A stretch of 64,000 nt of DNA, taken from the NCBI GenBank assembly GCA_964291285.2, contig OZ219789.1, positions 224,001-288,000 of the forward strand, in the 5' to 3' direction. The notes beneath the pieces were generated by a model. It was not told the DNA's origin, searched no databases, and saw only the letters and a list, made by a program, of their open reading frames with translations. Source of the DNA: Alphaproteobacteria bacterium. GTDB taxonomy: Bacteria; Pseudomonadota; Alphaproteobacteria; Bin95. Position numbers and translations under genes: made by a program. How positions within the stretch are numbered: the stretch's first letter is position 1; the number at the start of each line of letters is the position of its first letter. Shown here one piece after another: positions 13,498-35,818 of the stretch.

Positions 13498-13522
13498 GAC
13501 AGCTACCGGACCGGTAGCTGTC
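13498..13522. promoter_or_regulatory. Perfect palindrome GACAGCTACCGG-A-CCGGTAGCTGTC
   Basis: 12-bp arms, 1-nt spacer, between the RHH gene and the oriT-like site. Confidence 0.5.
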
Positions 13523-13781: not shown

Positions 13782-13808
13782 CCTGCATCAAGGATGCGTC
13801 GGGTGTGA
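13782..13808 (+). other. Putative MOBF-type oriT/nic site, copy 1 (predicted nick 13806/13807)
   Basis: GCATC-AAG-GATGC hairpin followed by GTCGGGTGT^G; resembles F (TGCGTGGGGTGT^G) and the R388 hairpin-nic layout; identical copy at 35792. Confidence 0.65.
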
Positions 13809-14585
13809 CGGTAAAACTCCGAACGGAGTCGAGATCGGGCGAGGTTGCCCTGCACACCACCATCTCCTGAAACGCCAGCGTCACAAGGGACGGGAGCCGT
13901 CGCGGCGATTGAGCGAGACGACCGGTCCGCGATCTTCGAGCGCGTTCCGCGTTGTCGTCCGGTCGCAGAGGTAACAGAACGCGGCGCGGCGTGCAAACGG
14001 CGGAGGGCAGTCTTCACACATGGCGCACCGGAGCCGGCGGCGTTACCTCGGCGGCACGGGCGCCGCCGCACATGTTCCGCGGAGCCGAAGGACGCCGCGC
14101 ACATGTTACCGCGATGCAAGCGTGCTCGACGAAAGCGGGGCTGTTCAGGGTGATCGCGTGCTGCTCACACATTACCGCAGACGCAGACGGGGATGGCGCA
14201 CCCGTTACCGCGGCTTCAGCCGCGCGGGTGCGGTGACGGTTGCGATAGCCGTTGCGATCGGAGGCGCCGACGGCGGCGCCTGCACGACTGCGGGCAGCGG
14301 TGCGAAGCACGGTGTCGTGCCGGTCCGGCAGCAGCGCCGGCAGTGGGCGGGTCAGCAGTGCCTGCGGCACTGCGCCGGGCCCGGCGCAGCCCGCGATGCA
14401 CCCATGCGAAGCATGGTGCAGCGGCGCGTGACGCGGCAGCCCCGGATCGCAGTCCGGGGCAGGCTCCTCACGAACGCGGCGCGAAGCGCGCGCGAGGCGT
14501 AGCTGTCGCGCGACGGGTGTGCGCATACGGAGACGGACCGCGCCGCCGCCGGAGCGGAGACGACGCGGCCCGTGGGTGCTGCGTG

Positions 14586-15512
14586 TCAGGCGGCGCAGCG
14601 CATGACCGGGATGCCGAACTGCTTCGCCTTGTCGACGAGGTTGTCGGTGATGCCGGAGCCGGGGAAGGCGATGACGCCCTTGGGCAGGAGGTTGAGCAGT
14701 TCGTCGTTGCGGCGGAAGGGTGCGGCGCGTCCGTGGCGGTCCCAGTCGGGCTTGCAGACGACCTGGTGGACGCCGTTGCGCTCTGCCCAGCGCGCCGCGA
14801 TCTTCTCGACGCCGGGACCGCCGCCATGCACGAGCACGAGGTCGGCATACCTGGCGCGGACCTTGTCGAGGCGCTCGATGACTGCCGCCGGGTTTGCGAT
14901 GTCCTTTCCGCCGGCGATGGCGACCAGTGTGCCCTGGGGCAGGTGAGCCTGTGTCTTGCGGTCCTTTCGGGCGCGGACGAAGTCGCGGGCGTCGATGGCA
15001 GCGGAGGTCAGATGTCCGGTCTGGCTGGCGTGGCTGCCGCGCCGGGGCCGCCATGTGTCGCCGGTGTCTGCGCGGTAGGCTTCAGCGGCTTCGTCGCGCA
15101 AGGTCTCGAAGGCGTCGCGGCGTGCGGTGAGGCACTGTGCGCGGTCGGTCGTGAGTTCCAGTTCGAGGGACCTGATCTCGGAGCCGTCCTGGGTGCGCTG
15201 GAGGTCCTGGAGTTCGGGGATGAGCCTGTCGGCAGCGCGGTCGAGGCGCTGCGTCTGGGCGTGGAGCATGTTGACGAAGCCCCAGAGCAGGCTCTCGCGT
15301 TCGTCTGCCATCTGGTATCCGTCGGGCGCGACGCCCTGGCTGAGGATGCGGAAGGCTTCGGTGACGGCGGCGATGGCCTCGTCTTCGTCCCAGACCTCGC
15401 GGTTGTCGAACTCGTCGCGCTCCGGGGTTGCGCCGAAGAGAGCGGCGTTGTCGCAGACGATCGCGGTTGCGGACTGCGCTGCGGTTTCGGTGATGTCGGT
15501 ATGGAAGGTCAT
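14586..15512 (-). CDS. DUF2493 (SLOG-family) domain protein, copy 1
   Basis: VAIAGG, LVHGG.PGVE, AAPFRRN, IAFPGSGIT motifs. Confidence 0.8.
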   Translation of the reverse strand: MTFHTDITETAAQSATAIVCDNAALFGATPERDEFDNREVWDEDEAIAAVTEAFRILSQGVAPDGYQMADERESLLWGFVNMLHAQTQRLDRAADRLIPELQDLQRTQDGSEIRSLELELTTDRAQCLTARRDAFETLRDEAAEAYRADTGDTWRPRRGSHASQTGHLTSAAIDARDFVRARKDRKTQAHLPQGTLVAIAGGKDIANPAAVIERLDKVRARYADLVLVHGGGPGVEKIAARWAERNGVHQVVCKPDWDRHGRAAPFRRNDELLNLLPKGVIAFPGSGITDNLVDKAKQFGIPVMRCAA

Positions 15513-15900
15513 GTCGTTTTCCTTTCGGTTTCACGTTCGGGGCCGATCCCCGCTGTGATGTCCTGTCGGGACACGCGCGCGGACCGCAGCCACCGGGGCC
15601 GGAATGAATGGCCTGGCGGGATGCGCGAGTGGTGCGGGCGCACAAGCGAGCGTGAGCGAGTGCGGAGCCACGGTCGCGCATCCCGCCAGGCCTAGGCGCT
15701 TGCGCCGTTTCATTCCGAGTCCCGGCCGGAACGGAGCGCCAGCGGAGTGGAGGACCCCGCAGGGGTTGGCGGAGGGAGCACGTGTGGCACGATTGGAGAT
15801 CACAGCGGGGTGGCGTATTTCTCTCGCCCTGCACGGACCCCATCGTCGTTTCGTCCCGGCACGGCGCCGGGAAGGATTTCCGGCCCTGCCCGCCTTTGCG

Positions 15901-16128
15901 TCAGTTCCACAGGGGATGGGAGTCGACCCGCTGCCGGGCGGTCTCGCGGATGCGGGCGCGGTCGTGGAGATAGACGGGCCCGCGCGGGTCTTCGTCGAGG
16001 TGTATGGCGAACACCCTGCGCCCCGGCCGGATGCTGTCGTCGAAGGCGTGGACGTCTCCGACATGGTCGCCGTCCCGGTAGATGCGGGATTCGTCGGGGG
16101 CAATGCGGCGGAAGGAGATGGTGCTCAT
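15901..16128 (-). CDS. 75-aa hypothetical protein (MSTISFRRIAPDES...), copy 1
   Basis: ORF conserved in both module copies; similarity ends at the ATG. Confidence 0.7.
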   Translation of the reverse strand: MSTISFRRIAPDESRIYRDGDHVGDVHAFDDSIRPGRRVFAIHLDEDPRGPVYLHDRARIRETARQRVDSHPLWN

Positions 16129-16187
16129 CGGGTTCTCCGGGTAGCGTGACGGGTGCGCGAGCGGGCTCCCTCTCCTCCTCGCGCGGT

Positions 16188-16742
16188 TCACCCGCTTTCC
16201 AGCCTCGCTCCCACTCCCGTATGCGCCGCGGCGAGACTCGAACCTGCCCGCATGAGAAAAGGGCCGGCGCGCGAGGCGCCGACCCTGTGGGGAGGGAAGA
16301 ACGGGAAGCTCTGGAACGGGATATGGTCGCCGTCCATCGGGTCGCCGCCGCCCGCCTCGTCCGGGCCGGGCTGCGCGGCGTTGCCGTTCGCCTTGTCGAG
16401 GAACTGCACGCGCCCACCCGGGACCAGCAGGATCTCGGTCGAGAAGCGGTCGGAGTCCTCGCCCGGCTTCGACCAGCGCCGGGTCTGGAGCTTGCCGTCG
16501 ATGTAGACCAGCCGGCCCTTCGTGGCGTGCCTGGCGAGCATGTCGATCAGCCCGTCCTGGAAGGTCACGACCCGGTGCCACTCGGTCCTGTCGATCCGCT
16601 CGCCGCTGCCGTTCCGGTCGATGTAGCTCTCGTCGGTGGCAACGCTCAGATTGGCCACGCGGCCGCCGTTCTGCAGGTGGTTGATGGTGACGTCCGCGCC
16701 GAGGCGGCCGATGATCTGCACCTTGTTCAGTCCGAATGCCAT
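16188..16742 (-). CDS. ssb: Single-stranded DNA-binding protein with apparent stop-loss extension
   Basis: LNKVQIIGRLGAD, TEWHRV, IDGKLQTR motifs; internal DHIPF tip. Confidence 0.92.
   Translation of the reverse strand: MAFGLNKVQIIGRLGADVTINHLQNGGRVANLSVATDESYIDRNGSGERIDRTEWHRVVTFQDGLIDMLARHATKGRLVYIDGKLQTRRWSKPGEDSDRFSTEILLVPGGRVQFLDKANGNAAQPGPDEAGGGDPMDGDHIPFQSFPFFPPHRVGASRAGPFLMRAGSSLAAAHTGVGARLESG
16257..16285 (-). terminator. Intrinsic terminator after the ancestral ssb stop
   Basis: GGGTCGGCGC-loop-GCGCCGGCCC-TTTT on the minus strand. Confidence 0.55.
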
Positions 16743-17324
16743 GACAATTCTCCTTCATGGACGAGTTGATGACGATGGGTTGCGAACGACCGGAGCCGGG
16801 GTCACTCCCCCGAACCCCCGCCCGTTCAATCTCTTCAGGCCCTGCTCCCCTCTATGCCGCCGGAGGGAGCGACGCCGCCGGGTTCCGGGGCTCCGCCGGG
16901 TCCTGGAGGGACATCCCGAACGCCGGTTCCGGGAAGAGGCTCGCGAAGCCGTGCTCCGGACAGGCCGCGCCCCTGTCGGGGCAGCTGTAGGTGACGGTCG
17001 TAAAAGGCGCTTATTTGCTGGCGTTGCGCGTTTTTGCGGGGCGTGATGATCGCAGTGATTGTGGCGCCGCGGTGTTTACGACGGGGGCCGGGGACGGAAG
17101 GAGGGCGTAGCCCGACTGGAGTCGCCGGCCCCCGTCGCGTTGATATTTTCGCCTGCCGAGGGGAGGGTGTCCTGGCGCTGTCGGCGAGGGTCGCCGGGCT
17201 GCGCGAGGGAGTAGACTCGGTCCGGTGAGAACGATGCCGCGCCGGCCCCGTTTGCTAGGTGGCAACGACCGGCGCGGCGGATCGCGGCCAGGCGAGCGCC
17301 GCCATCGCCGCCCGGGACAGTATG

Positions 17325-18266
17325 TCAGGTCCAGGCGGTGAAGGAGGCGGTGACGGGGGCGTCGGCGACGATCTCGACGCGGTTGCGGTCGAGCTTCCCG
17401 AAGGCGAGGCAGAGGGCGACATCGGCCGGATCGTCGAACGGGCCGTGCTCGCGGCCGGTCTCCAGTTCGATCACGGTCCAGACCGGCTCGTGGACCGGGA
17501 TGCCCCTGAAATGCGCCGACCCTTGATACGACCTCTCGGCACAGGGCGCACAGCGCGCGGCCCCCTGTGACGGCGCCCCGCAGGCCGTGCACAGGCCGGC
17601 GGCCCGGCGTCGGGCGTACAACTGCCGCGAGCGCGCGTTCTTGCGCTCCGGGTTGTGGCTGGCCTTTTCGATGGCGGCGCAGGGGCCGCAGCGCGAGAGG
17701 CCGTCGAAGGCCGGCTGCCCGCAGCGTGTGCAGCGGCCCGCGGTCCTGCGTTCGTCATATTGCCGCCGTTCCGCCGCCTGCCTCCTGTCCCTGCAGGGCT
17801 GGCAGGTGGTTCCGCACTCGACGGGGGGACGCTTGCCGCAGCGGATGCAGAGGCCGGCCCCGGTCCTTGCCTTCTGGCGGCGCCTGCTCTTGAGGCGGGC
17901 GGCCTTGCGTTTCGCCTCCGCATTGGCGCCGCCATAGGGCAGCCCGGCGGCCTTGCAGGCGGCGTAGCGGGCGCGGTCGTCCGCGCGGCGCTTCTCCAAA
18001 CATGCCTCGCACGACGCGCGGCCCTTCACGGCCGGCGCATTGCCGCAGCGGGTGCAGAGGCCTTTGGCGGCCCTTTGTTCCCTCTTGCTGCGAGTGCGCT
18101 GGCGCTCGGACTGCCGGACGGTTTCGGGTCTCTTCGCGGCGGACCCGGCGCAGACGCTGCGCCCCGGCGCGGGCGGGACCTTGCCGCAGCGCGGACACAG
18201 GCCTTGGGCGATACGCTTGCGCTCGCGGGCCTTGCGGACTTCCGGGTCCCGGCAAGCCATGGCCAT
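17325..18266 (-). CDS. Basic protein with five tandem Cys4 zinc-finger-like repeats
   Basis: G(L/R)CxxCG-x(7-9)-CxxC repeated five times (first one degenerate); GAGGAG RBS. Confidence 0.75.
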   Translation of the reverse strand: MAMACRDPEVRKARERKRIAQGLCPRCGKVPPAPGRSVCAGSAAKRPETVRQSERQRTRSKREQRAAKGLCTRCGNAPAVKGRASCEACLEKRRADDRARYAACKAAGLPYGGANAEAKRKAARLKSRRRQKARTGAGLCIRCGKRPPVECGTTCQPCRDRRQAAERRQYDERRTAGRCTRCGQPAFDGLSRCGPCAAIEKASHNPERKNARSRQLYARRRAAGLCTACGAPSQGAARCAPCAERSYQGSAHFRGIPVHEPVWTVIELETGREHGPFDDPADVALCLAFGKLDRNRVEIVADAPVTASFTAWT

Positions 18267-18326
18267 TCTCCTCGTCGATGATGCGGGGTCGGGCGGGAGA
18301 CGCCCGGCCGGCGGCGGGCCGGCCGG

Positions 18327-18568
18327 GCGTCCGGGACGATCAGCCGCGCTGGCGGCGGTCGGCGAAGATCCCGAGGCTGCGCCAGCCCCACAGCTGCACC
18401 CCGCAATGCCGCAGTCTGACCCCCGTCGCGATGATGATCTCGTCCCGGGCCGGACGTATCTCCTCAAGCGCCTTCGCGGTGACGATCGTGCCCCGGGCCT
18501 TGCGACGGCCCTCGCATGCCGTGCCGCCGGACCGGACGGGAACGATCTCGCCGTCGGCCTTCGAGACG
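18327..18568. repeat. ~240-bp direct repeat, copy 1 (copy 2 ~22408-22649)
   Basis: Near-identical sequence from CGTCC.GACGATCAGCC to GGCCTTCGAGAC. Confidence 0.88.
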
Positions 18569-18666
18569 TAGCGTTCGACGACATAACGGTCGTCCTCAAG
18601 ACCGCCGCCGACGAAATGGATGAGATAGGTGCGCGCGTCGCCGCGCGGTGCGATTGCTGCCTGCAT
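18340..18666 (-). CDS. Hypothetical protein
   Basis: AAGGAG RBS; 3' portion duplicated at ~22410-22650. Confidence 0.55.
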   Translation of the reverse strand: MQAAIAPRGDARTYLIHFVGGGLEDDRYVVERYVSKADGEIVPVRSGGTACEGRRKARGTIVTAKALEEIRPARDEIIIATGVRLRHCGVQLWGWRSLGIFADRRQRG

Positions 18667-18896
18667 CGTGCCGTGCTCCTTCGACAGGTGAATGGGAACG
18701 GCGGCAGCGCCCCCTCCCTCCGGAGCGCCGACCGCCGCCCCACTCACGGCCAGACCTCGCCTCCTGCCGGTGGAAGACGCGTGGATGGAGACGCCGGCAG
18801 GACGGCCATGCACCGGACAGGAGCGCGGCGCGAGTTGAAAAGCCACACCGGGCATCATAAAAGGAGGCATGAAGGCGGATGTGCGCGAGGCTCGGG

Positions 18897-19279
18897 TTGC
18901 AGACGTTCAAGACCAGGGCGTTCGCCCGTTTCGCCGACCGCGAGGGGCTGGAGGATGAGGCATTGTGCGAGGCCGTCCGGCGCGCCGGGGAGGGGCTGGT
19001 CGACGCCGACCTCGGTGGCGGCGTCATCAAGCAGCGCATCGCCCGCAAGGGCGGCGGCCGGTCCGGAGGGTTCCGCACGATCGTGCTGTTCCGTCGAGGC
19101 GAACTGGCGTTCTTCGTGCACGGGTTTGCGAAGAGCGCCCGGGCAACATCCGGCGCAAGGAACTTTCGGGGCTGCGATTGCTGGCAAACGAGTATCTGGC
19201 GCTGGATGCGGCGGGTCTTGCGGTCGCGCAGGCGACTGGATCGATAATCGAGGTGGAATGCGATGACCGGGCAGCATGA
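18897..19279 (+). pseudogene. RelE/ParE (HigB-like) toxin, frameshifted near 19140
   Basis: FKTRAFARFA, DADLGGGVIKQR, GRSGGFRT, GFAKS; the C-terminus GNIRRKEL...IIEV is in another frame. Confidence 0.8.
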
Positions 19280-19580
19280 GAGCGAGGTGCTGGCTTCGGT
19301 GCACGAGGCGGCGCTCGGCCTGGCCGAAGCGGGCGTGATGTCGAAACGGACCATGCGGAAGTTCGACGAGATGTGCCTCACGCCCGTCAAGGAGATGACG
19401 CCGGAAGACATTCGCGCGCTTCGGCTGCGCGAGAACGCGAGCCAGGCGGTGTTCGCGCGCTACCTCAACGTGACGACGGGTCTTGTGAGCCAGTGGGAGC
19501 GCGGCGAGAAGCACCCCCGCGGCACCTCTCTGAAGCTGCTGACGCTGGTGGAGAAGAACGGTCTCGGTGCGGTCGCGTGA
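19263..19580 (+). CDS. XRE/HigA-like HTH antitoxin
   Basis: IRALRLRENASQAVFARYLNV..GLVSQWERGEKHP. Confidence 0.85.
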   Translation: MTGQHESEVLASVHEAALGLAEAGVMSKRTMRKFDEMCLTPVKEMTPEDIRALRLRENASQAVFARYLNVTTGLVSQWERGEKHPRGTSLKLLTLVEKNGLGAVA

Positions 19581-19655
19581 AAACACGCACCGATCGCGCC
19601 TCCGCCCTGCGCAACCGGGGCGTACTCGAGTTCGACATGACCAGGCAGTTGCACC

Positions 19656-20417
19656 GTGGGCGCTGAATCGGCAATCGAGTGGACCGACGCAACGTGGAAT
19701 CCGGTGACGGGCTGCACGAAGATCACCCGCGGCTGTGACCACTGCTACGCGGAGCGCTTCGCCGAGCGATGGCGCGGTGTTCCCGGGCACCCCTATGAGC
19801 AGGGATTCGACCTGCGACAGTGGCCGTCGCGGCTCGATCAGCCCGCACGATGGCGCAAGCCGCGAATGATCTTCGTCAATTCCATGAGCGACCTGTTTCA
19901 CAAGAAGGTAGATCGGAGCTTTGTCGACAGCGTATTCGAAACGATGGAGGTCGTGGACAGGCACGTCTATCAGATCCTGACAAAACGCAGTTCGCTCATG
20001 AGGAACTACTTGCGACGCCGGTACGCCGACGGTTCGGCTCCCCACCACATATGGTGCGGAGTTTCCGTTGAAGACAGCTCGGCAACTGCAAGAATCGAAC
20101 ATTTGCGAACGGCGCCGGCGGCGGTGCGGTTCCTCTCGATTGAGCCGCTCCTGGGTCCCGTCGGAAACATCGACCTGGACGGGATTTCCTGGGTGATTGT
20201 AGGAGGAGAAAGCGGCCCGCAGGCCCGACCCATGCAACCGGAATGGGTCCGGGACATCCGCGACCTCTGCGCACGTGCTGGCGTGCCGTTCTTCTTCAAG
20301 CAGTGGGGCGGGCAAACGCCGAAGGCCGGCGGCCGCAAGCTGGAGGGAATGGAGCATAACGCAATGCCCGGGCTACTGACCGAGAAGGACGACCATGCCG
20401 TTCAAATGGCACCCTGA
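19656..20417 (+). CDS. DUF5131 (phage Gp37/Gp68) family protein
   Basis: IEWTDATWNPVTGCTKITRGCDHCYA, FVNSMSDLFH, WVIVGGESG, FFFKQWGG. Confidence 0.93.
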   Translation: MGAESAIEWTDATWNPVTGCTKITRGCDHCYAERFAERWRGVPGHPYEQGFDLRQWPSRLDQPARWRKPRMIFVNSMSDLFHKKVDRSFVDSVFETMEVVDRHVYQILTKRSSLMRNYLRRRYADGSAPHHIWCGVSVEDSSATARIEHLRTAPAAVRFLSIEPLLGPVGNIDLDGISWVIVGGESGPQARPMQPEWVRDIRDLCARAGVPFFFKQWGGQTPKAGGRKLEGMEHNAMPGLLTEKDDHAVQMAP

Positions 20418-21648
20418 CGACCCACCGCCGTCCATCGAACCGCATAGCAAGGCGAAACTGGAGGTTTTGCGCAGCTATCTTCGAGCGTACTACGACAGGC
20501 TGAACGTGAATCCCGTCCGAGAGGAGTTCAAGCTAGACCTTATTGACGGGTTTGCGGGCGGAGGTCTATTCCTTGATGAAACTGCCGAAGTTTCGGGCAC
20601 ACCCTTGGTCATGCTCGAAGAAACCGAAAGGGCGAGCGTCCGGCTAAACAAGAAGCGCGCGAAACAACTTCACATCGATTGCAGGTTCTGTTTTGTCGAT
20701 AAGGAGGAGGCGCATACGGACCATCTGCGAAAGATCATCAGAGAGCGTGGCCATCGCGTCGATGATGACAGGATCGTCATCAGAAACGGCCTCTTCGAGA
20801 ATGAGGTCGAGGGCATCATCAATTCAGTTCGACAGCGGCAACCCCGTTCCGGGCGCGCGATTTTCCTTCTCGACCAGACCGGGTTCTCGCAGGTGCAACT
20901 CTCGCTCGTGTCTCGGATTTTTAGTGAGTTGCCAGCGGCCGAAGTGATACTGACTTTTGCAGCCGATGCTCTCGTCAACCACTTGGCGGAAACTCCACAG
21001 ATCGCCAAGATGGCAGTACCGCTTCAGTTGACCGATTCGCAGATTTATGACCTGATCCGGAAAAGAGACGGAGACGGCGGCAGAGCGCTTGTGCAAAGAA
21101 CGCTGCGCAACCACGTCCGGATAGTAACCGGCGCAATCTACGATACGCCTTTTTTCATTCGGCCACGGCAGTCAAGGCGCGCTTTATGGTTTCTCCATCT
21201 TTCAAGGCACCCAACGGCGCGCGACGTGATGATTCAACGGCATTGGGACATTCAGAATACCTTCGAACACTACGGACGGGGGGATTTCGGTATGTTGGGC
21301 TGGGATGCCTTGAAGAACTCGGATACCCTTCCGTTGTTCCAGTTCGGTGAACTCGATGAGAGGCAAATGCGAACGGAGCTGTTGGACTCTCTTCCTCGGG
21401 AGCTGTCCGGGCTGGTGTCTGAACACCCTGTCACCATGGACGCCGTGCGGCATATGCTTGCGAACCGGACGGCTGCGCGATTCTCCGATCTGGATCAAGT
21501 CATTGTGAGGCTCGTGCGGGAAGGAGAGTTCGAAATCGTCAATGAGGAAGGCAAGGTGAGGCCTCGGTCAGTTCAGCGATTGGCTCCAACAGATCGTTTG
21601 GCGCTTCCGTCCACGCTGTTGCTCCCGGGGCTGTCTCGCCGAGCATGA
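20395..21648 (+). CDS. tcmP: Three-Cys-motif partner protein (TcmP-like, SAM-binding fold)
   Basis: HSKAKLEVLRSYL, LIDGFAGGG, FLLDQTGF; overlaps the DUF5131 gene. Confidence 0.82.
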   Translation: MPFKWHPDDPPPSIEPHSKAKLEVLRSYLRAYYDRLNVNPVREEFKLDLIDGFAGGGLFLDETAEVSGTPLVMLEETERASVRLNKKRAKQLHIDCRFCFVDKEEAHTDHLRKIIRERGHRVDDDRIVIRNGLFENEVEGIINSVRQRQPRSGRAIFLLDQTGFSQVQLSLVSRIFSELPAAEVILTFAADALVNHLAETPQIAKMAVPLQLTDSQIYDLIRKRDGDGGRALVQRTLRNHVRIVTGAIYDTPFFIRPRQSRRALWFLHLSRHPTARDVMIQRHWDIQNTFEHYGRGDFGMLGWDALKNSDTLPLFQFGELDERQMRTELLDSLPRELSGLVSEHPVTMDAVRHMLANRTAARFSDLDQVIVRLVREGEFEIVNEEGKVRPRSVQRLAPTDRLALPSTLLLPGLSRRA

Positions 21649-21796
21649 AACATCGTAAGCAACGAATTGGATCTGTGCAGGTCCTTGCACCGGGGTGCAT
21701 CGTTGAATCCACGGATCCGCGAGTGGGATATCCGCGCGTATGCGATAGCCACACAGGCGGCGTCCGGGCGGTCGTGGCGCATTTGAGGCGCGTGCC

Positions 21797-22345
21797 ATGA
21801 CAGTGGCCCGGATGAACCTCGAACTTGCGGAGAGACCGAGCGCGCGTATCATCCTTGTGCGCATCCGCGGGGAAAGCCGCGATGAGGCCGAGAAGGGACG
21901 CTGGTTCGAACAGTTGTTCATGCGGGTTGCGCTTCAGGAGCCGGAATTGTTGAGACTAAGGGCATCTGGCGCCGGGCAGAGTGGCCCGAGCGTGAGACGC
22001 TCACCGGTCTTGATGGACGAGATATCGGGATCGATCTGATGGCGCGGGGCACCTCTGGTGAGTGGGTCGCCATTCAGTGCAAGCGCTATGACGACCGGCA
22101 TGTACTCGGCAAGAGCGGGATCGACAAGTTTCTCGGCGACTCGCAGCAGCCAGTCTTCCGACTGCGGTGGGTCATGGCGACTTGCAGTTGGGGGCCGAAT
22201 GCGAAGCGTGCGATCCAGATTGCCCATCCCGAAATCAGGCAGATCGACTTCAGGCAGTATCTCGACATTCAGGTCAAGGAGCAGGGTGCAAAACGCCCGG
22301 CGCAGGAGCCATGGCCGCTCCAGGCCGATGCGATAGATGCTGCTC
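21797..22345 (+). pseudogene. Type ISP RM-like remnant (Mrr-type nuclease plus helicase Q-motif start)
   Basis: EKGRWFEQL, DIGIDL, AIQCK, PWPLQADAI; frameshift near 21950; truncated before the repeat. Confidence 0.7.
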
Positions 22346-22407
22346 CGGGTCGGGGTGGAATACGGCTGGCGGAGGTCAGGCCGGCGGTGGACCGCGTCGG
22401 GCCGGCA

Positions 22408-22649
22408 GGACGTCCAGACGATCAGCCGCGCTGGCGGCGGTCGGCGAAGATCCCGAGGCTGCGCCAGCCCCACAGCTGCACCCCGCAATGCCGCAGCCTG
22501 ACCCCCGTCGCGATGATGATCTCGTCCCGGGCCGGCCGCATCTCCTCAAGCGCCTTCGCGGTGACGATCGTGCCCCGGGCCTTGCGACGGCCCTTGCGTG
22601 CCGTGCCGCCAGACTGGACGAGAACGATCTCGCCGTCGGCCTTCGAGAC
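22408..22649. repeat. ~240-bp direct repeat, copy 2 (3' fragment of the 18340-18666 gene)
   Basis: Matches 18327-18568. Confidence 0.88.
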
Positions 22650-22729
22650 ATGGCTCGCGCCCGAAGCGGTGTGGTCGATGCCGATCCGGGCGGCGGCGTG
22701 ATATGGCGTCGGGTGATGGAGAGGGCCGC

Positions 22730-26785: not shown

Positions 26786-26815
26786 ATTACTGCCCGACTG
26801 TAGATTGGGCCACTA

Positions 26816-27667
26816 GGTTCAATCGACATACAGGATTCCCTGGGAAGACATTATGTGATTCATGACGCTCCAACTGATTTTCGGTTGGAGTTGGGCGTAT
26901 GGTGAAGCGCTATGAGCTGACGGATGCGCAGTGGGTCCGCATCGAAGGTCTGCTTCTGGGCAAGCCGGGCGATCCGGGGCGTTCGGGAGCAGACAACCGG
27001 TTGTTCGTCAACGCGGTTCTGTGGGTGCTTCGTTCGGGCGCCCACTGGCACGACCTGCCGCCGCGCTATGGGAAGTGGAAGTCGGTGCACAAGCGTTTCA
27101 CACGCTGGGCCAAAGTGGGCGTGTGGGAGAGGGTGTTCGATACCCTGACGGCGGATCGCGACAATGGCTATCTCATGCTCGACAGCACCATCGTGCGCGC
27201 GCATCAACAGGCGGCGACCGGAAAAGGGGGGGCCGGGATCAGGCTCTGGGGCGTTCCAGAGGCGGACTGACGACCAAAATACACATCGCCTGCGACACTC
27301 TCGGACGACCGCTCCGCGTGATCCTCTCGCCCGGACAGGCCGGCGACGCGCCAAAGGCCCTGGCGTTGATGGAGGGGTTTCGGCCCCGCCATGTGCTCGC
27401 CGACGCTGCTTACGACGCCAATGCCATCCGCAACCGCATCGCCGACATCGAGGCCGAGGCCGTCATCCCCTGCAATCCAACGCGAAAGCGTCTCATCGGC
27501 TATGACGCCGAAATCTACAAACACCGAAACCGCATCGAGCGCTACTTCAACAAGATCAAACACTTCCGCCGCATCGCAACCCGATACGACCGAAAAGCAA
27601 TATACTTCCTCGCCTTCATACACATCGCTTCTGCTATCCTCTGGATGCGATGAATGTCGATTCTGCC
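26816..27667 (+). mobile_element. IS5 family (IS427-like) element
   Basis: IRs GG(TTC/CAG)AATCGACAT; TA duplication in CTAG context. Confidence 0.88.
26899..27653 (+). CDS. IS5 transposase, orfA/orfB joined by probable -1 frameshift
   Basis: RYELTDAQW, LDSTIVRAH, slippery AAAAGGGGGG, GRSRGGLTTKIH, YKHRNRIE. Confidence 0.85.
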
Positions 27668-27865
27668 TAGCGCTCATCCAGACCGAAAAATCCCGGTGCA
27701 CGCCTCGAAATCTCCTCGTCACTGCCATATAGAAATTCTATCTCATACGGAGCGAAATTGCACAGTCTTGAGAGACCCCATACGCTACTGGGGTCGATAA
27801 TATTACCGGGTGCCCCGTGCCCCGTGCGTGAGGAAGGCGCCAAATGAACGACGGTGCAATTCGCA

Positions 27866-30800
27866 ATGCCTGAACTGATTGCAGACGGCCCGGACATTCC
27901 GGCGCGCCTCCTGAACGGGCTGGACGACGGCAATGTCGTTTTCTTCTGCGGCGCCGGGGTCTCGATGGCAGAAGGGTCTGACCTGCCAAGCTTCAAAGCC
28001 CTCGTGAAACATGTATATGATGCCAACCACATCGAAGCCGATCCCGCCGAACGGCAAGCGCTATGTAGCGGGGCCTGGGACAGGGCGCTCGGGCTTCTGG
28101 AACGCCGCCTGGGCGCGAACCACTTGCGGCGCGCGGTCATCGACCGGCTTTCTCGACCGCCATGCGGTGACCTGAAACTCCACAAGGCATTGCTCGAGCT
28201 GTCGCGGACTGAACGCGGCGTCCGACTTGTCACCACCAATTTCGACAACCGCTTTGCCGAAGCGGTGGAAGAGGTCGATGCCGCGCCCCGGCTTCCGATA
28301 CCCAAGCGTCATGACTGGTCGAGCCTGGTGCACCTGCACGGCCGCATCGCACCGAAGGAGGATAGCTCGAACCTGGTGCTGACCGCGGCAGATTTCGGGC
28401 GCGCATATCTGACCGAGCGCTGGGCGGCGAGGTTCGTCACCGAACTGTTTCGCGAATTCTCGGTCGTCTTCGTCGGCTACAGCCTCGACGATCCTGTCAT
28501 GGGGTACATGGTCGACGCCCTTGCCGCCGAGCGGTCAAAGGGCGCGGGCTTCAGAACGGCCTGGGCATTCGCCGCCATGGATGGTTCCGAAGCCGGGATA
28601 TCCAGGGCGCGTGACGCCTGGGTCGCGAAGAATGTCGAACCGATCCTCTATGACGAGCGGGACGGACACCGCCTTCTCGCAGACACACTGATTGAATGGG
28701 CGCGGATCCGAAGCGATCCCCTTCGAGCCCGTTCCCGGATCGCCATCGACGAGATTAACAAGATGCCGGCCGGGCCGGTTGTGGAACGGGTCGTCTGGGC
28801 GCTACAGGACGCATCGGCCGCCAGGGCGCTTGCCGAAGCCCCTCCCATGTCGAACGAGGAGGACCATGCAAAGTTCGAGAAGTGGCTCGACATGTTCGCG
28901 GAAAAGGGTCTGCTGCGCTCTGCCGCTAACGGGACGGACCGGCATCTCGTAGATACCGGTCTCGAATCGGTGAATCCCTACAATCTGGATACGACAAGGC
29001 ATCATCTCTCGGTTTGGCTGGCCAGACATCTGCATGTGCCGCAACTGCTGGCCTGGGCGCTTCGGAACGGCGGTCATCTTCACCCTCATCTTCGCCAGCA
29101 GGTCGAGGGCCGTCTGGCTGAGCAGGCTTCCGCGCCTCCGGACATTCCCGACAGGCTGCGACTGCTCTGGACCGTTCTTCTGGGCAAAAGGCCCGATGAT
29201 CCCTGGAACGGGCGCTGGTTCTCCGACCGTCATCGGGCCGCGACGTCCCCCGACGAACGCAGGCTCATCGAGGACAAGGTCATGGAGAGTATCCGGCCGC
29301 GTCTCGTCGTCCGACCGGGTCTTTCCTTGAGACGGGAATTATCTCTGAATTACGAAAATCCTCCGCAAGCGCCGCAGCCCATCGATACATGCGGACATCT
29401 CGAATTGACGTCGGCATGCGACGGGGTTTGGGCGCTATTCAAGGCTATTCTCGATGACCACGAAGTGCTTTCGAGACACGCCGAGACGCTGACCGATCAT
29501 CTCGAACACGCCCTTTCCCTGGGTAAGGCCGATGGCAATGTCTGCCAGCGGTCGTACCTGTATCGGCCGTCGATCGCGTCCCACGAGCAAAACAACGGTT
29601 CCGACAACTGGACCCGCCTCATCGATCTGGCGCGGGACAGTTATCTTGCGCTGGTTCCCGACGAGAGCCCACGCGCGTACAATCTTCTCCTTCGCTGGGC
29701 GGACTCCGAAGAGCCGCTGTTCGGGAGGCTGGCGCTGCACGCGCTGACCGAAAACCCGAGAGCCGATATTCGGCTTGCCCGGAAACTGCTTCTGGGAGGT
29801 CGAAACCCCGGTCTCTGGGACTGCGACATGCGGCGCGAAACGATGCGTTTTCTGAGATTGGCGGGCAAGCGGTTACCCCGGGATCTCCGCAGCGACATCA
29901 TTGACGCAATTCACGCCGGACCGAAATCGAATAAAATCCGGGAATCCTTCGGCAGTGACGAAGGGTTGCGCAAAGAACAGGCATTGTTCCTGTACAAGAT
30001 GGACATATCCGGGGTAAATCTGAACAAGAAATCAAGAGCGATGGCTGAAACAATAGCCCCGAAAGCGGAGGGAATAGAGGAAGATCCCGACGAATTTCTT
30101 GGGGAGGTAAAGTATGAACGAAGCGGTATCAAGGATTATGCGCCCAAGCATCTCCTCAAGGGTTCAGTCGAAGACATCGTGGTGGAACTCAAGTCCGATC
30201 AGCTCGGTCAGAAGAAACTTCAGGGGCTGGCTGCCCGGAAACCGGTAAAGGTTGTTTCCGCACTGCGGCGACTCGGTAAACAGGGCGAATGGCCTGCACG
30301 GTACTGGCGGGAATTCCTCTGGGAGCTGCCGGAACCAAAGTACCCGGCGAGATTGCATGCCTGTGCGGCAAGAATCCTTGCCGAGGCTCCCGGCGAACTG
30401 TTCGGCGAGGCAGCGTCCGCCGTCGCGGGTTTCGTGAAACAGCTTGCGGACGCATGGGGAACCGATCGGGAAGCCGAATTCGGTGTCCTTTGGACGAAAT
30501 CCTGGACCGGAAAGGGCGAGGGCGGATCGGAGATGGCCGACCGGGACGAAACCCTGACGAACGCCTTGAACCATCCGGCCGGAAAGCTGGCGGAAGCGGC
30601 ATTGACCCGGCTGTCGAAATACGAATTGCGAGCCGGAGCGGGATTCCCCGCACCGGTCCGGCCGTATTTCGACGCCATGGCCGAAGACCCGCTCGGGCAT
30701 CCAGGCCGCGTGCGTCTGGCGACCAGATTGCGCCCGCTGTTTGCGGTCGACCCCGAGTGGACCCGGCGGCACCTGATCGCACGCCTCGCCTGCCTGAAGT

Positions 30801-31220
30801 CACAGGAAGCTGTCGACCTATGGTCTGCATACAGCTGGTCGCCAGGTCTGGGTCCGGACCTCCTGAAAGCCATCAGGGCGCCGTTTCTCGAAATCCTGCG
30901 CGACGACAGGCTGGAAGACCGGAGAATGTGCCGATTGAGAGACCTGTTCATGGCGGTCTGCCTTGATGCGCCGGGAGATCTGACTGAGAAAGAGATTCGC
31001 GACATTGTCGACCCCATGCCCGAACAAGGGCTGGAGACTGTGCTTGGGAGCCTGATGTGGCGTCTCGCCGGGACGCCTGACGAGCGGCGGCGGATATGGA
31101 ACAAGAAATTGTACCCTTGGCTTTGCGAGCACTGGCCCCGAGAGCAGGAACGCAATACCGGAACAACATCGGAAATCATACTGGAAATGCTTGCGGAGTG
31201 CGGCGACGCATTTCCTCAGG
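27866..31220 (+). pseudogene. Dsr1-like defence-associated sirtuin (SIR2_2 NADase), main part, interrupted by IS256
   Basis: GPDIP..VVFFCGAGVS, VTTNFD, LVHLHG, FVGYSLDDP; long helical C-terminus. Confidence 0.82.
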
Positions 31221-32672
31221 GATCGTGTCCCGAGCCGTGGTGTAAGAGCCTGGCGCCCGTGGCGGTGTCCGGCGGGTAGGGCCGGTAGGCTCAGGCTGCC
31301 ACGGCGGGCAGCTTGACGGTTGCATTGTCGCTCACGGGAGCGATGGATTCCAGCGTTACGTATCTGGCTCTCTGGACGGCCCATTCGTCGTTCTGCTCGA
31401 GCAGGATGGCACCGATCAGGCGGGTGATGGCGTTCTCGTTGGGGAAGATGCCGACGGTGTTGGTGCGCCGCTTGATCTCGCCATGGAGGCGTTCGAGCGG
31501 GTTTGTGGAGTGCAGCTTGGCGCGATGCGCGGCCGGGAAGGTCATGTAGGCGAGAACATCGTGCTCGGCCTCGTCCATGATGGCGGCGAGCTTCGGCGCC
31601 TTGGGCCTGAGCTGGTCGGCGACCTGGCGCCACTGGGCGGAGGCGCTGTCTGCATCCTCCTGGGCGAAGGCGGTGGTGACGAAGGCGGAGACGACGCGCC
31701 GGCCCTGCTTGCCGGCATGGGCGAGCAGGTTGCGCATGAAATGCACGCGGCATCTCTGCCATGTGGCGCCGAGGATGCGGGTCGCGGCGGCCTTCAGGCC
31801 CTTGTGGTCGTCGGAGATCACCAGCTTGACGCCGCGCAGGCCGCGCCGGGCGAGCGAGCGCAGGAAGTCGGTCCAGAAGGTCTCGGCCTCGGACGCGCCG
31901 ATCGCCATGCCGAGCACCTCGCGCCGGCCCTGGTCGTTGACCGCCACCGCGATGGTGACCGCGACCGAGACGATGCGCCCGGCCTCGCGCATCTTCACAT
32001 AGGTCGCGTCCAGCCACAGATACGGCCAGTCGCCCTCCAGCGGCCGGTCGAGGAAGTCGCGGATCTTGTCGTCGATCTCGCCGCACAGCCTGGACACCTG
32101 GCTCTTGGAGATGCCCGACATGCCCATCGCCTGCACCAGGTCGTCGACCGAGCGGGTGGATACGCCCTTGATGTAGGCCTCCTGGATCACCGCCGTCAGC
32201 GCCTTCTCCGCCATCCGCCGCGGCTCAAGGAAGCCCGGGAAGTAGCTCCCCTTGCGCAGCTTCGGGATCTTCAGCTCGACCGTGCCGGCGCGCGTCTCCC
32301 AGACCCGGTCGCGGTAGCCGTTGCGGTGCGTGATCCGGTCCGGCGAACGCTCGCCGTGCCCGGCGCCCGCAAGGCCCTCAACCTCAAGCGCCATCAGACG
32401 CGCGGCCGTGAACCCGATCATCTCGCGAAGCAGATCGGCGTCGGAACTCTTCTCCAACAGCGCCCGCAGGGTCATCATGTCGGTGGTGGTCATCGTGGTA
32501 CTCCTCCGGTCGGATGGACTGTGGAAGCCCAACCCTACCGGCACCGCGATGGTCATCCGCTATGGATAAGTGGCCCGCCGCCGCCAGACTCCAGACGGTC
32601 GCGGCGGCGGGCCACTTACCCACAGCTACCGATGGTGGCTCCAGCTCCTACACCACGCCTGGGGGCACGACC
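31221..32672 (-). mobile_element. IS256-family element
   Basis: IRs G(A/G)TCGTG...CGTGGTGTA; 8-bp TSD TCCTCAGG (31213-31220, 32673-32680). Confidence 0.93.
31291..32493 (-). CDS. IS256 transposase
   Basis: [45 protein letters not shown]. Confidence 0.95.
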
Positions 32673-33131: not shown

Positions 33132-34481
33132 TCAGATCTCGATACCCTGCGGTCTTCGGTGGATGCTTGCATCCGATCGCTCCGGATCCCCGGTTCTGCC
33201 CCGAAGAGGAACCCCCTCCCTCTCTGGCGCGGTTGGCTTTCCGGGACCCGGGAACCCGGGCATGGCAGCCGACACATCGCCGTGCTCCGCCTTGTCCGAC
33301 AGTGGGGGCGGTTCCGCCCTGTACCCCATTGCTCGCGCGATGACGGCCGCAGCCTGCGCGGCGGCGTCGCGCAGCGCGCCATCGTCGAGATGGGCGTAGA
33401 TCGCGGTGGTCTCCCGCTTGCGGTGTCCGAGCAGCCGTCCGACCGTGGTGAGCCCGACGCCGTTCATGACGCCCTGCGAGGCCCAGGTGTGGCGGCAGTC
33501 GTGGATGCGAAGGCCCGGAAGCCCCGCCTCGTCGCGGATACCGCACCAGAAGGTGTAGAGCCTTGCCGGTGTGAGGATCTCGGGGAACACCCGCTCCCGG
33601 CCATCCGGTCGCGGCAGCGCCTCGACCAGCCTTGCCGCTTCGGGTCCGAGCCAGATGGTGCGCGGGCCGGTCTTGGAGTCTTCGATGCGCGCGCTCGCGC
33701 CGTCTCCGGCCAGCTCACCGATCTCGTCCCACCTGAGGTTGATGACTTCGGAGAGCCGCGCTCCGGTCAGGGTCAGCAGCCGGATGGCCGCCACCGGCCA
33801 GGGGTGTTCCTCCCGGTGGCGGTCGAGCACCGCGCCGAGACGCTCCAGCTCTTCGCGGCTGAGGTAGCGCGCGACGGGCTTGCGGGGGTTCTTCACGATG
33901 TTGGCGCAGGCATCGGGGACATGCTCGCCGATGTCACCCCACTGCCGGGCCGTCCCGAGCATGGCGCGGAGTATCTCGAAGGCGCGGTTGGCCGCGCCGG
34001 GCCTGTCCGCGCTGGCGGCGTCGAACCATGCCGAGACCCGCGCATGGTCGATGGCGTCGAGCCGGAGCCTGCCGAAGTGCGGCATCAGGCGGTTCTTCAT
34101 GTAGCTATCGAAGGTCTTGAGCGAGGACGGCTTCCAGCGGTGTTTCCGCCGCGAGCGGTAACGGGCGGCGAAGTCCCGGAACAGCGGCGCCTTCTCCTTG
34201 CGCGGCGGCGTCACGTCCTCGCCGCCCCACAGGCGGGCGAGCACGGCCGCGCCTTCCCGGCGGGCCGCGTCGAGAGGCAGTTCGGGGAAACGCCCGAGGG
34301 TGATCTTGCGCATGCGTCCCCGGACGCGGGTCTGGACGATCCAGGACCGGACGCCGGAGGGCTGCACCCTGACCCCGAAATGCGCCAGCAGATTGTCCCA
34401 CAGGGTGTATTCCCGTTCCGCCGGCTTGGCGGCGGCGACGGCCTTCACGGTGAGCCGGACACGATGCCTGCCGCCGCTCAT
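33132..34481 (-). CDS. Tyrosine integrase 2 (Arm-binding domain + catalytic domain)
   Basis: TGARLSE, DSKTG, IHDCRH, LLGH, TAIY; ATGA overlap with integrase 1. Confidence 0.9.
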   Translation of the reverse strand: MSGGRHRVRLTVKAVAAAKPAEREYTLWDNLLAHFGVRVQPSGVRSWIVQTRVRGRMRKITLGRFPELPLDAARREGAAVLARLWGGEDVTPPRKEKAPLFRDFAARYRSRRKHRWKPSSLKTFDSYMKNRLMPHFGRLRLDAIDHARVSAWFDAASADRPGAANRAFEILRAMLGTARQWGDIGEHVPDACANIVKNPRKPVARYLSREELERLGAVLDRHREEHPWPVAAIRLLTLTGARLSEVINLRWDEIGELAGDGASARIEDSKTGPRTIWLGPEAARLVEALPRPDGRERVFPEILTPARLYTFWCGIRDEAGLPGLRIHDCRHTWASQGVMNGVGLTTVGRLLGHRKRETTAIYAHLDDGALRDAAAQAAAVIARAMGYRAEPPPLSDKAEHGDVSAAMPGFPGPGKPTAPEREGVPLRGRTGDPERSDASIHRRPQGIEI

Positions 34482-35614
34482 CGCCCGCTCTCCTTCCCGG
34501 TCATGGCCTCGTGGACGATGCCGGAGATGCGCCCGGCCGCCTCGCGGACATGCTCGTCGGCGAGATGGGCGTAGCGTTCGGTGGAGGCGGTGTCGGCATG
34601 GCCGAGCAGGCGGCCGACGGTGTAGAGGTCGAGGCCGCTCATCACGGCATGGGAGGCGAAGGTATGCCGGCAGTCGTGGATGCGCACATCGTCCAGCCCG
34701 GCGAGACCGCGCAGCTTCTGCCAGCGCAGGCCGAGGTCGGTCATCGGGCCGTCGCCCTTCCCGTTCGGGAAGACGAAGCGTCCCTCGCGCGGCAGGCCAT
34801 TCAGGACGGCCCGCGCGGGCGGGGGAAGCTGGAGCGCCTTCGGTCCGGTCTTGGAGTCCGGCAACACCGCGCGGGTGTCCCGTATCCAGTCCCATTGCAG
34901 GCCGGCGATCTCGGACGACCGGGCGCCGGTGAACAGCAGCAGGCGGATGGCGGCGGCGGCCTGCCGGTCCTCCGCATGGTCGAGGACGAAACCGAGGCGC
35001 TTCAACTCGTCCAGGGACAGGAACCGCTCGCGCGGCGCCGTCCTGTAGCGCCGCATGTTGCGGCAGGGGTTGGAGCCCTGCGGGCGAAGGTCCCACAGCT
35101 CCGCCTGCCGCATCATCACCGAGAGCACCGGCAGGGTCCGGTTGGCGCTGCCGGGGGTTCCGCTGAGGGAATCGAACCAGCGCCGCACATCGGCGCGGTC
35201 GATCTTCGCGACGGGCATCGCGCCGAAGAAGGGCACGAGGCGGCGCTCGATCAGATGGGCGTTAGCCTTCCTCGTGGAGGGTTTCCAGCGCCGCCCCTGG
35301 CGGCGCATGAAGTCGGCCGCGAAGTCGGCGAACAGCGGCCCGGTCTCGCGGTCGGCTTTGGCTTCGGCGATGGCGGCAATGGCCTTCTCCCTCGCCTCGG
35401 CGGCGGTCATGTCGTCGGTCGTGCCGAGGATCGCCCTGGGCACGCCGAACTGGCGTGAGGTCCGGACGAAGAAGGTCTTCGTCCCGTTCCCGGCGACGGT
35501 GAAGCCGAAGGCGGGCAGGTCCCTGTCGATGACGGTCAGGCCGTATCGTCCGGGTTTCTTCTCCCTGAAGGTGCGGCGGACCGTCCGCTCGTTGACGGGG
35601 GCATGGATGCGCAT
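34478..35614 (-). CDS. Tyrosine integrase 1 (Arm-binding domain + catalytic domain)
   Basis: TGARSSE, DSKTG, IHDCRH, LLGH, TERY. Confidence 0.9.
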   Translation of the reverse strand: MRIHAPVNERTVRRTFREKKPGRYGLTVIDRDLPAFGFTVAGNGTKTFFVRTSRQFGVPRAILGTTDDMTAAEAREKAIAAIAEAKADRETGPLFADFAADFMRRQGRRWKPSTRKANAHLIERRLVPFFGAMPVAKIDRADVRRWFDSLSGTPGSANRTLPVLSVMMRQAELWDLRPQGSNPCRNMRRYRTAPRERFLSLDELKRLGFVLDHAEDRQAAAAIRLLLFTGARSSEIAGLQWDWIRDTRAVLPDSKTGPKALQLPPPARAVLNGLPREGRFVFPNGKGDGPMTDLGLRWQKLRGLAGLDDVRIHDCRHTFASHAVMSGLDLYTVGRLLGHADTASTERYAHLADEHVREAAGRISGIVHEAMTGKESGR

Positions 35615-35791
35615 GGGCGTGTCTCCGTTGTCTGTTCCCTCGGGCGCCGTCCGTCCCGGGGGAACGGAACGGCGCTCCTGAACGGACAACGCGACCCGCG
35701 CGCGGGACCGCGGTCAGAGGCCGGGCCAGGCCCAACCGCCTGTCACGCAACGGAAAACTGCCGACCGATGCACACCGGCCGGGCCTCGCTC

Positions 35792-35818
35792 CCTGCATCA
35801 AGGATGCGTCGGGTGTGA
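35792..35818 (+). other. Putative MOBF-type oriT/nic site, copy 2 (predicted nick 35816/35817)
   Basis: 27/27 identical to 13782-13808 with dissimilar immediate flanks. Confidence 0.65.

Follow-up and report, generated by a model that had tools for sequence, protein, structure and literature searches.

Integrative and mobilisable elements (IMEs) that dock in another mobile element's transfer origin (oriT) have been described in streptococci, where the integrase of the IME_oriT elements inserts them into the stem-loop where the nick is likely to lie in the oriTs of MobT integrative and conjugative elements (ICEs) (Libante et al. 2020, PMC7563843). Here we analyse a 64,000-nucleotide stretch of alphaproteobacterial DNA (the window; positions 224001-288000 of contig C5 of genome G000, which comprises 6.1 Mb in 5 contigs), in which two copies of a 27-base site, the 27-mer, bracket a 22-kb segment with defence genes and two integrase genes. 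We read this segment, with a probability of about 0.55 for the reading as a whole, as belonging to a family of integrative islands that lack a relaxase and that each have a leading arm (DUF2493, SSB), variable defence cargo and two P4-type integrases at the far end. Conjugative DNA transfer very probably starts at the two sites, each being read as the nic region of a MOBF-type oriT, and the island can probably hitch a ride on conjugative elements located elsewhere in the genome.

Like the IME_oriT elements as described in PMC7563843, the island would be an integrase-bearing mobilisable element set in the oriT stem-loop or nic of a resident conjugative element, with direct repeats and cargo, and the trait of insertion in the stem-loop or nic is shared in that its junctions fall inside the site. 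The streptococcal elements measure 2.7-10.9 kb, occur in Firmicutes, target MobT (Rep_trans) ICEs and, according to the same paper, encode and need their own relaxase, whereas the island here spans 22 kb, contains no relaxase, has a predicted MOBF-type target, carries an oriT copy together with leading-region genes, and has two integrases. Since the island holds no Rep_trans relaxase related to that of IME_SagLMG15084_oriT, we regard it as an analogue and not a member of IME_oriT. It appears to fit the recently proposed relaxase-less iOriT class, the 'minimal hitchers', which according to their preprint description combine an integrase with an oriT, lack relaxase and type IV secretion system (T4SS) genes, and rely on co-resident conjugative elements (bioRxiv 10.64898/2026.01.13.699239). 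Unlike the iOriT islands described there, which come from six gamma- and betaproteobacterial species and are bounded by ordinary chromosomal attachment (att) sites, the island here has an att core that would coincide with the oriT nic region, and its target would be the oriT of another element.

In the oriT recombination carried out by the relaxase TrwC of R388, oriTs in direct repeat likewise bound a segment, a 17-bp nic core suffices as the target and the ribbon-helix-helix (RHH) accessory protein TrwA stimulates the reaction; as presented in that report (PMC3264647), this is a laboratory reaction of one plasmid relaxase with no natural cassette, whereas integrases are present here. Defence islands with P4-type integrases share with our segment an Arm-DNA-bind_3 and Phage_integrase protein at one end, an att site just upstream of the integrase gene (int) and defence cargo, and differ from it in that the target here would be an oriT, not a tRNA gene, and in the two tandem integrases. 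Our literature search found no island, proteobacterial or of MOBF type, with an oriT as its docking place and a copy of that oriT on board, although the supplementary tables of papers may list some.

Anatomy, conservation and surroundings of the 27-base site

The 27-mer CCTGCATCAAGGATGCGTCGGGTGTGA is present as two exact matches, 22,010 bp apart and both on the plus strand, as an earlier reading of this stretch from its letters alone (the sequence-only reading) had stated. Its parts, and the unit between the two predicted nics, are as follows:

13782..13808, plus strand: site copy 1, left island junction (exact match)
13785-13789, plus strand: distal arm of copy 1, GCATC
13790-13792, plus strand: loop of copy 1, AAG
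13793-13797, plus strand: proximal arm of copy 1, GATGC
13798-13806, plus strand: GTCGGGTGT of copy 1, with the predicted nic between 13806 and 13807
35792..35818, plus strand: site copy 2, right island junction, with the anatomy of copy 1 and the predicted nic at 35816/35817
13807..35816, plus strand: nic-to-nic unit of 22,010 bp, read as an integrase-bearing, relaxase-less island (IME or 'iOriT' type)

At up to 3 mismatches the window contains no additional match to CCTGCATCAAGGATGCGTCGGGTGTGA, and none of 100 shuffles gave one; the chance expectation for the 27-mer in the window is none. The sequence immediately flanking it differs between the two copies, left and right alike. A homologous block of 1.7 kb (89%; 14470-16128 versus 36147-37789) lies right of each copy, and since the distance to the start of this block is 662 bp for copy 1 and 329 bp for copy 2, the 27-mer stands as a separately conserved stretch of its own. 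Copy 2 is located 103 bp upstream of the start codon of the integrase gene intB and is divergent from it. A tRNA or tmRNA gene as the target of the P4-type integrases was ruled out, since neither is present in the window.

The sequence-only reading had compared the site with the nic regions of F (relaxase TraI) and R388 (TrwC), and the comparison is upheld by the match to the F 12-mer, the R388-like geometry and the covariation of the stem. The F oriT oligonucleotide TTTGCGTGGGGTGT^GGTGCTTT is reported to be nicked after GGGGTGT (PMC2504302). With the F nic given there, TTTGCGTGGGGTGT^GG, the window 12-mer is identical at 11 of 12 positions, and a GTG variant of the 12-mer, present in G000 and in the genus, matches the F nic GCGTGGGGTGT^G at 12 of 12, so that the general form GCGTSGGGTGT^G equals or nearly equals that of F. 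For R388 TrwC, it is reported that the hairpin loop can have any sequence, that the distal arm tolerates changes, that the 5-nt proximal arm and the following 9 nt are required, with position 20 taking any base, and that a purine is obligatory 3' of the nick, the bases beyond being free (PMC4176350). The natural variation of the sites here matches these rules as far as that paper sets them out: a 5-nt proximal arm stands 9 nt before the break, stems covary across sites while loops are free, position +1 is a purine, and the two variable positions S and K correspond to R388 positions 19 and 20. As in F and R388, the relaxases beside the sites carry TrwC and AAA_30 domains, and the T4SS is F-type. 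Unlike either of them, the sites here join an F-type nic sequence to an R388-type adjacent hairpin with a 3-nt loop; they lie in integrated elements, downstream of the relaxase gene and not upstream of an accessory-relaxase operon; and a single genome has 20 of them, the majority with no relaxase close by.

A search of G000, which the sequence-only reading had called for, yielded 15 copies of the 27-mer at up to 3 mismatches, 10 of them exact, spread over all 5 contigs, as well as 20 sites of the same design (5-bp hairpin, 3-nt loop, GTSKGGTGT, purine). Among 67 GTSKGGTGT matches in this genome, all five stem pairs form directly upstream in 20, four in one and at most three in 46; the stems of the 20 sites are GCATC/GATGC in 17 and GCGCC/GGCGC in 3, a doubly compensated change. 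When 16 relatives (other species of the genus, among them G007, G011, G013 and G016) were searched as well, the pattern GCNNC-NNN-GNNGC-GTSKGGTGT-R gave 62 sites, namely the 20 in G000 and 42 in 11 of the 16 other species, and a reversed control pattern gave 2 matches. Perfect complementarity was found in 60 of the 62 stems (GCATC/GATGC, GCACC/GGTGC, GCAGC/GCTGC and GCGCC/GGCGC), for which the chance with two free pairs is 1 in 16, and the other two have one G-T pair. A set of 41 distinct sites includes 14 loop variants, all 41 have a purine after GGTGT, and their information content falls to background on either side of the site. A stricter form of the pattern had no match in 20 genomes searched from two other genera of the family. 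One stretch of 28 kb in a relative (G007:C3:3486454-3514655) contains four sites in the same orientation with three stems (GCATC, GCACC, GCGCC/GGTGC), which suggests arrays of several units.

Adjacency to MOBF relaxase genes in relatives, the point on which the sequence-only reading had said its proposal could fail, was found: among 27 relatives' loci, several of which are short contig ends, the C-terminus of a TrwC gene lies within 1.5 kb on the left side in 8, a 171-amino-acid (aa) open reading frame (ORF) in 12 and an RHH-like ORF in 1, and DUF2493 lies on the right side in 19. The 171-aa ORF beside the TrwC-side sites matches no family. In G016, the order is TraU, TraN, TraH and TraG_N (F-type tra genes), TrwB, TrwC (1077 aa), the 171-aa ORF on the opposite strand, and finally the site, which TrwC precedes by about 970 bp; the associated relaxases have TrwC and AAA_30 domains. 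Beyond the site, and oriented toward it, follow DUF2493, DUF4326, SSB, three genes of unknown function, HicAB and four integrases, and then chromosomal genes. The integrases form a row of four P4-type genes (locus L044:7369-12163) at the end of this conjugative element.

G000 itself has 21 TrwC-domain matches, all above the Pfam cut-off, and no MobA_MobL or PF03432 relaxase match, and 20 of its 24 DUF2493 genes have a nic motif 436-874 bp past their stop codon on the opposite strand. The site C1:63192 has the end of a TrwC gene 6.5 kb upstream of it. In this genus, conjugative elements with a TrwC-family relaxase, TrwB and an F-type T4SS appear to use such sites.

Right of both copies in the window, leading-region genes lie on the minus strand and are transcribed toward the sites, in agreement with the sequence-only reading: DUF2493 and SSB at copy 1, and DUF2493, DUF4326 and a Toprim primase at copy 2. 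Minus-strand genes to the right of a plus-strand nick would use the transferred strand as template, which is the usual arrangement of leading regions. About +60 to +130 nt past the nic, all leading-arm types contain a motif, GGGGAATCGACGCCGGGGAACCCGGCGG...GAGCCGCCRCGGCG.TTGAGYG (e.g. 35878-35925 and 13888-13915), which is kept in G000 and the relatives though the stretch between nick and motif differs, and which could be a candidate binding or priming site on the first DNA entering the recipient.

The 22-kb segment, its junctions and its relatives

The segment and the resident genes on either side are delimited by the following features:

13019..13369, minus strand: 116-aa ORF, pointing away from copy 1, on the resident oriT side
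14586..15512, minus strand: DUF2493 (YspA/SLOG), first leading-arm gene, pointing at copy 1 (Pfam YAcAr, 4e-23)
16188..16742, minus strand: SSB of the leading arm (Pfam SSB, 3.3e-23)
33132..34481, minus strand: int2, second P4-type tyrosine integrase, downstream of intB; start approximate, the longest ORF reaching 35096 (Pfam Phage_integrase and Arm-DNA-bind_3, residues 215-572 of the long ORF)
34478..35689, minus strand: intB, P4-type tyrosine integrase, right island end (Pfam)
35817..39194, minus strand: resident leading region whose oriT the island is proposed to occupy (DUF2493 36261-37451, DUF4326 37786-38142, Toprim primase 38139-39194; Pfam)

Thus intB and int2 (33132-35689) stand at one end of the island, and the 27-bp direct repeats at both. 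A Pfam scan found no relaxase, type IV coupling protein or T4SS domain among the scanned ORFs of 13.8-35.8 kb, nor among the 64 ORFs of the window as a whole, and the absence of a relaxase from the window had been correctly noted before.

In G000, the left flanks of the sites comprise an RHH-like-gene flank (5 sites, including copy 1), an intB flank (11 sites, including copy 2 and a GTG variant at C5:300719), the TrwC side at C1:63192, flanks with the GCGCC stem (3 sites) and flanks with only 9-19 nt of the site. The 'cggtaaaactcc' arm, a right flank that leads toward the island's DUF2493 gene, follows 10 sites with six different left flanks. Conversely, the intB arm precedes 11 sites with five kinds of right flank, namely three leading-region variants, a flank with a type ISP restriction-modification (RM) gene and the C1:52119 flank; the right-flank type of copy 2 is also found in G000 and G007 behind sites whose left flanks are of other kinds. 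Unrelated DNA is joined to the island arms at the site, with ABC-transporter, desaturase and YcaO genes at C1:52119 and the type ISP RM gene at C3:1423804 and C5:419487. One arm always comes after the site and the other always before it, and what lies beyond varies. The island is a discrete unit, whose two ends both fall in the final few bases of the nic motif.

By coordinates, six pairs of sites in direct orientation, 11-52 kb apart, are found in G000, none with a TrwC match inside; the inner content was examined for the C5:237782 and C5:388675 pairs and the ends for the C4:261491 and C1:63192 pairs:

C5:237782 to 259792: 22.0 kb, the window island
C5:388675 to 419487: 30.8 kb
C4:261491 to 237323: 24.2 kb
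C1:63192 to 52119: 11.1 kb
C5:333773 to 300719: 33 kb
C2:432630 to 380362: 52 kb

The C5:388675-419487 unit matches the window island at 91.8-97% block by block, has an extra 10 kb, and its homology to the island ends 5 nt past the right 27-mer. The sequence-only reading had proposed that a relaxase supplied in trans could excise or transfer the whole segment as one unit; the unit behaviour is supported by this second copy, with the same right boundary within 5 nt, and by the five other units.

Two units, of 27.3 and 24.1 kb, were observed in G013, each ending with int2, intB and a site on the right and starting with a site and a related DUF2493 arm on the left. Because their hairpins differ within the unit (GCATC-tt-GATGC on the left; on the integrase side, a proximal arm GGTGC), the two sites have no more than GCGTGGGGTGT(A) in common, which places the joint within about 12 nt that contain the predicted nick.

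G011 contains two uninterrupted arrangements of RHH-like gene, site and DUF2493, and the right flank of its intB-side site is 79% like one of them, which supports the view that 'RHH-like gene, oriT, leading region' would be the resident arrangement that receives the island. The simpler reading offered earlier, of two related elements in tandem, was half right, in that the right-hand partner appears to be a resident leading region whose oriT the island occupies. An RHH gene had also been said to point away from copy 1. Its orientation stands, and its RHH nature is probable on sub-threshold matches (E 0.026-0.04): the 116-aa ORF has Pfam matches to NikA-like families (E 0.038 and 0.032) and RHH_4 (E 0.14), below threshold, its profile against PDB sequences gives MazE7 at E 0.026, its N-terminus has a strand-helix-helix pattern, and an AlphaFold2 model from 5 sequences (pLDDT 61) has helices at 13-26 and 30-44, for which Foldseek found nothing in PDB at E <= 0.001. 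The ORF is present at 5 of 5 sites that share the copy-1 left flank, truncated in one, and homologs lie at the same distance from sites in G011. It is probably an RHH protein resembling relaxosome accessory proteins, belonging to the resident oriT.

In a plasmid collection, only gene-level similarity of DUF2493 was found (60-80% identity; 422 records, 259 of them predicted conjugative), and the context of the 27-mer was not found in it.

Integrase or relaxase as the enzyme that makes the joints

We infer nicking, an excised circle, mobilisation and the identity of the joining enzyme along the following lines. The attachment core of the island would overlap its own oriT, and the nic region of a resident oriT would be its insertion target, here the oriT that lies between the RHH-like gene and the leading region with DUF2493, DUF4326 and primase; one full site would be left on each side. 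Its integrases would excise it as a circle with one site (intB arm, 27-mer, DUF2493 arm), which a relaxase and T4SS supplied in trans would nick at the site and transfer; the leading arm would enter the recipient first and be read from the transferred strand, and the integrases would then insert the island into another oriT.

All 11 copies of intB in G000 are intact, 98-100% identical in amino acid sequence and located beside a site, with a pN/pS of 0.23, and the integrases are under purifying selection. At 6 of 6 orthologous loci (76-100% identity; G000, G011, G007, G013) the int start is preceded at a distance of 115-119 nt by the nic motif, whose orientation is the same throughout and whose stems covary; among 17 distant integrase loci (43-45% identity), 2 have the motif, at 92-102 nt. 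The fixed spacing of 115-119 nt in four species points to the integrase as the inserting enzyme. For P4-type integrases, an att site just upstream of their own gene is the ordinary case. We consider integrase-driven insertion of islands into resident oriTs, with mobilisation in trans, to have slightly better than even odds.

Several observations weigh against this account. The homology of the two C5 units starts 370 bp left of the left site, inside the shared RHH-like flank, so that the left boundary rests on the other left contexts. No partner lies in the expected place for 4 of 10 left and 5 of 11 right junctions, which may be due to the many insertion sequence (IS) elements and repeats, and G000 yielded no empty site, which would consist of the RHH flank, the 27-mer and the right flank of copy 2. 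Contigs from four public runs, which are short and mixed, showed no joint or loose end at the 27-mer among the matches listed for 12501-32500, a result that provides no evidence either way on excision. The window has no relaxase, and on the same contig more than 200 kb separate it from the nearest one. Around the site, integrase repeats of the arm or core type were not convincingly found: a comparison of the four arms by 11-mers with one mismatch allowed returned only local palindromes and the shared downstream motif. In G016, such a site is missing from the junction beside the integrases, so that its use is not common to all integrases of these elements. Finally, the crossover is confined only to about 12 nt including the nic, which fits a relaxase as well as an integrase.

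A GTCT variant, present at the integrase-side site C2:380362 and at C3:117448 with right flanks 99.4-99.8% alike, was considered as a marker of a crossover left of the nick and set aside, the closest relative of the flank carrying GTGG; the varying position is R388 position 20, which takes any base according to the R388 work cited above, so that the mapping is uninformative.

The alternative closest to the sequence-only reading is that a TrwC-family enzyme alone excises, transfers and re-inserts the unit, starting at one site, ending at the next and integrating the incoming strand into any resident nic-like sequence, with the integrases as cargo or serving another step. The unit does begin just past one predicted nic and end just short of the following one, divergence of the right flanks sets in at +1/+2 after GGGTGT, the S position and the hairpin change together with the left flank, and the genome offers 21 TrwC-domain matches. 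R388 TrwC is reported to recombine oriT copies and to integrate incoming DNA into a 17-bp core, and some left junctions (classes D, F and G) keep 9-13 nt of the site, similar to the relaxed acceptor needs described for it (PMC3264647). The same report, however, describes the TraI of F, whose nic sequence is matched here, as unable to recombine oriT copies, and relaxase integration as rare even in the laboratory; moreover, the integrase-site spacing is fixed in four species, the integrases are under purifying selection, and the literature search turned up no natural element of this kind. We therefore regard a relaxase-made cassette as unlikely, and the notion that oriT copies are the ends of natural, conjugation-driven, defence-carrying cassettes moved nic-to-nic by the relaxase itself as doubtful. 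The earlier picture of a relaxase starting at site 1 and stopping at site 2 is to be weighed against the two intact integrases, the fixed spacing and the reported behaviour of F TraI.

A plain tandem of related elements, in which an oriT-plus-leading module is shuffled by homologous recombination, IS elements and deletions with no site-specific insertion, would suit a region rich in IS elements, with leading arms 82-99% alike as substrates for homologous recombination and many junctions without partners. It has difficulty with breakpoints that fall in the same 12-27 nt or so at no fewer than 10 left and at 11 right junctions, and again in G013, and with island arms joined at the site to unrelated DNA (C1:52119, C3:1423804, C5:419487). 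Moreover, an identity of 11-13 nt is below what RecA-driven exchange needs, and we consider such shuffling improbable. It is more improbable still that the 27-mer is an integrase att core that merely resembles a nic and has no use in transfer. The integrase directly beside it and the direct repeats flanking the island would be expected of such a core, yet 8 of the 27 relatives' loci have the site, with no integrase adjoining, after TrwC and before leading-region genes, and its identity to the F nic 12-mer and a conservation pattern that obeys the published relaxase rules speak for a role in transfer.

If integrase-driven insertion with mobilisation in trans is correct, the island would be a proteobacterial, MOBF-type counterpart of the streptococcal IME_oriT that brings no relaxase, and would bring instead a full copy of the host oriT, doubling as a docking site, plus its own leading-region genes. 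Every insertion would then leave two working origins, the defence genes would be placed where the first DNA entering a recipient comes from, and Dsr1, the type IIG RM enzyme and the PDC-M30/M41 pair would have a route by which to spread from one to another of the many conjugative elements that a single genome holds. As a natural mutational series for MOBF nic recognition, the site family offers stems of four types, 14 or more loops and two positions that tolerate change, and it represents a concrete system for testing in nature the integrase activity of relaxases, so far confined to the laboratory.

Cargo and neighbouring genes

Between the leading arm and the integrases, and outside the island, the window encodes the following features:

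3-2153: piece of a DUF1156/HmaB-like methylase, left of copy 1, followed by a pile of IS elements at 2.8-12.9 kb
18879-19247 and 19263-19580, plus strand: RelE/HigB-type toxin and helix-turn-helix antitoxin (Pfam RelE 4.6e-34, HTH_3 5.4e-7)
19656..21648, plus strand: DUF5131 protein and partner, candidate defence pair PDC-M30/M41 (Pfam DUF5131 2e-97; PADLOC PDC-M41B 3.7e-101, PDC-M30A 8.3e-16)
22039-22701, plus strand: piece of an Mrr-like nuclease (Pfam Mrr_cat_2)
22598-26785, plus strand: type IIG RM or DrmMI-like enzyme of 1395 aa (Pfam Eco57I; PADLOC DrmMI 1.7e-85, REase_MTase_IIG 1.7e-59)
27854..31279, plus strand: Dsr1, a SIR2-domain defence protein (PADLOC Dsr1 7e-162; Pfam SIR2_2 2e-20)
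31291..32556, minus strand: IS256-family (Mutator) transposase inserted in the island (Pfam Transposase_mut 8e-120)
39281-41080: IS4-type element truncating the resident leading region

In the leading arm, SSB is followed by a 472-aa ORF with only faint zinc-ribbon hints in Pfam (E 0.44), inside which four copies of a 34-nt repeat (71-100%) lie at 17705-18203. A direct repeat of 238 bp (96%) at 18335-18572 and 22417-22654, 4,082 bp from start to start, encloses the toxin-antitoxin pair, the DUF5131/PDC-M30 pair and the Mrr piece; a public contig joins 18450 to 22602 and thus skips roughly this segment, which may be a deletable or duplicated cargo module. An IS5 piece is located between the genes for the type IIG enzyme and Dsr1. 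At the right end, the N-terminus of int2 follows intB in G011 and G013 too.

Left of the RHH-like gene at the five sites with that flank (loci L011, L019 and L020, and 3-2153 of the window), an SNF2 and NOV_C helicase, a DUF1156/HmaB-like methylase, a DUF499 ATPase and a PIN/Phd pair recur, which seems to be an Hma-like defence system at the trailing end of the resident elements. On the other side, an exact tandem duplication of a 37-mer lies at 41293-41366, and an inverted version (83%) at 39160-39199, before the IS4-type transposase gene (39281); these copies are probably IS ends.

Further right, two IS5-family copies in direct orientation (45510-46295 and 48675-49487, 92-94%) flank a 761-aa HATPase_c_3 gene (46388-48673) in the manner of a composite transposon, and a 612-aa metallophosphatase (PADLOC PDC-S60, 2.6e-41) is encoded beside that gene. 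The ParB-like, DUF2958, RadC and DUF6197 genes at 55520-64000 are part of an inverted leading region (continued in locus L047, G000:C5:288001-305000), which goes on with a 1505-aa Strawberry-notch-like helicase, SSB, primase, DUF4326 and DUF2493 to the intB-side site C5:300719 on the minus strand, 12.7 kb past the window.

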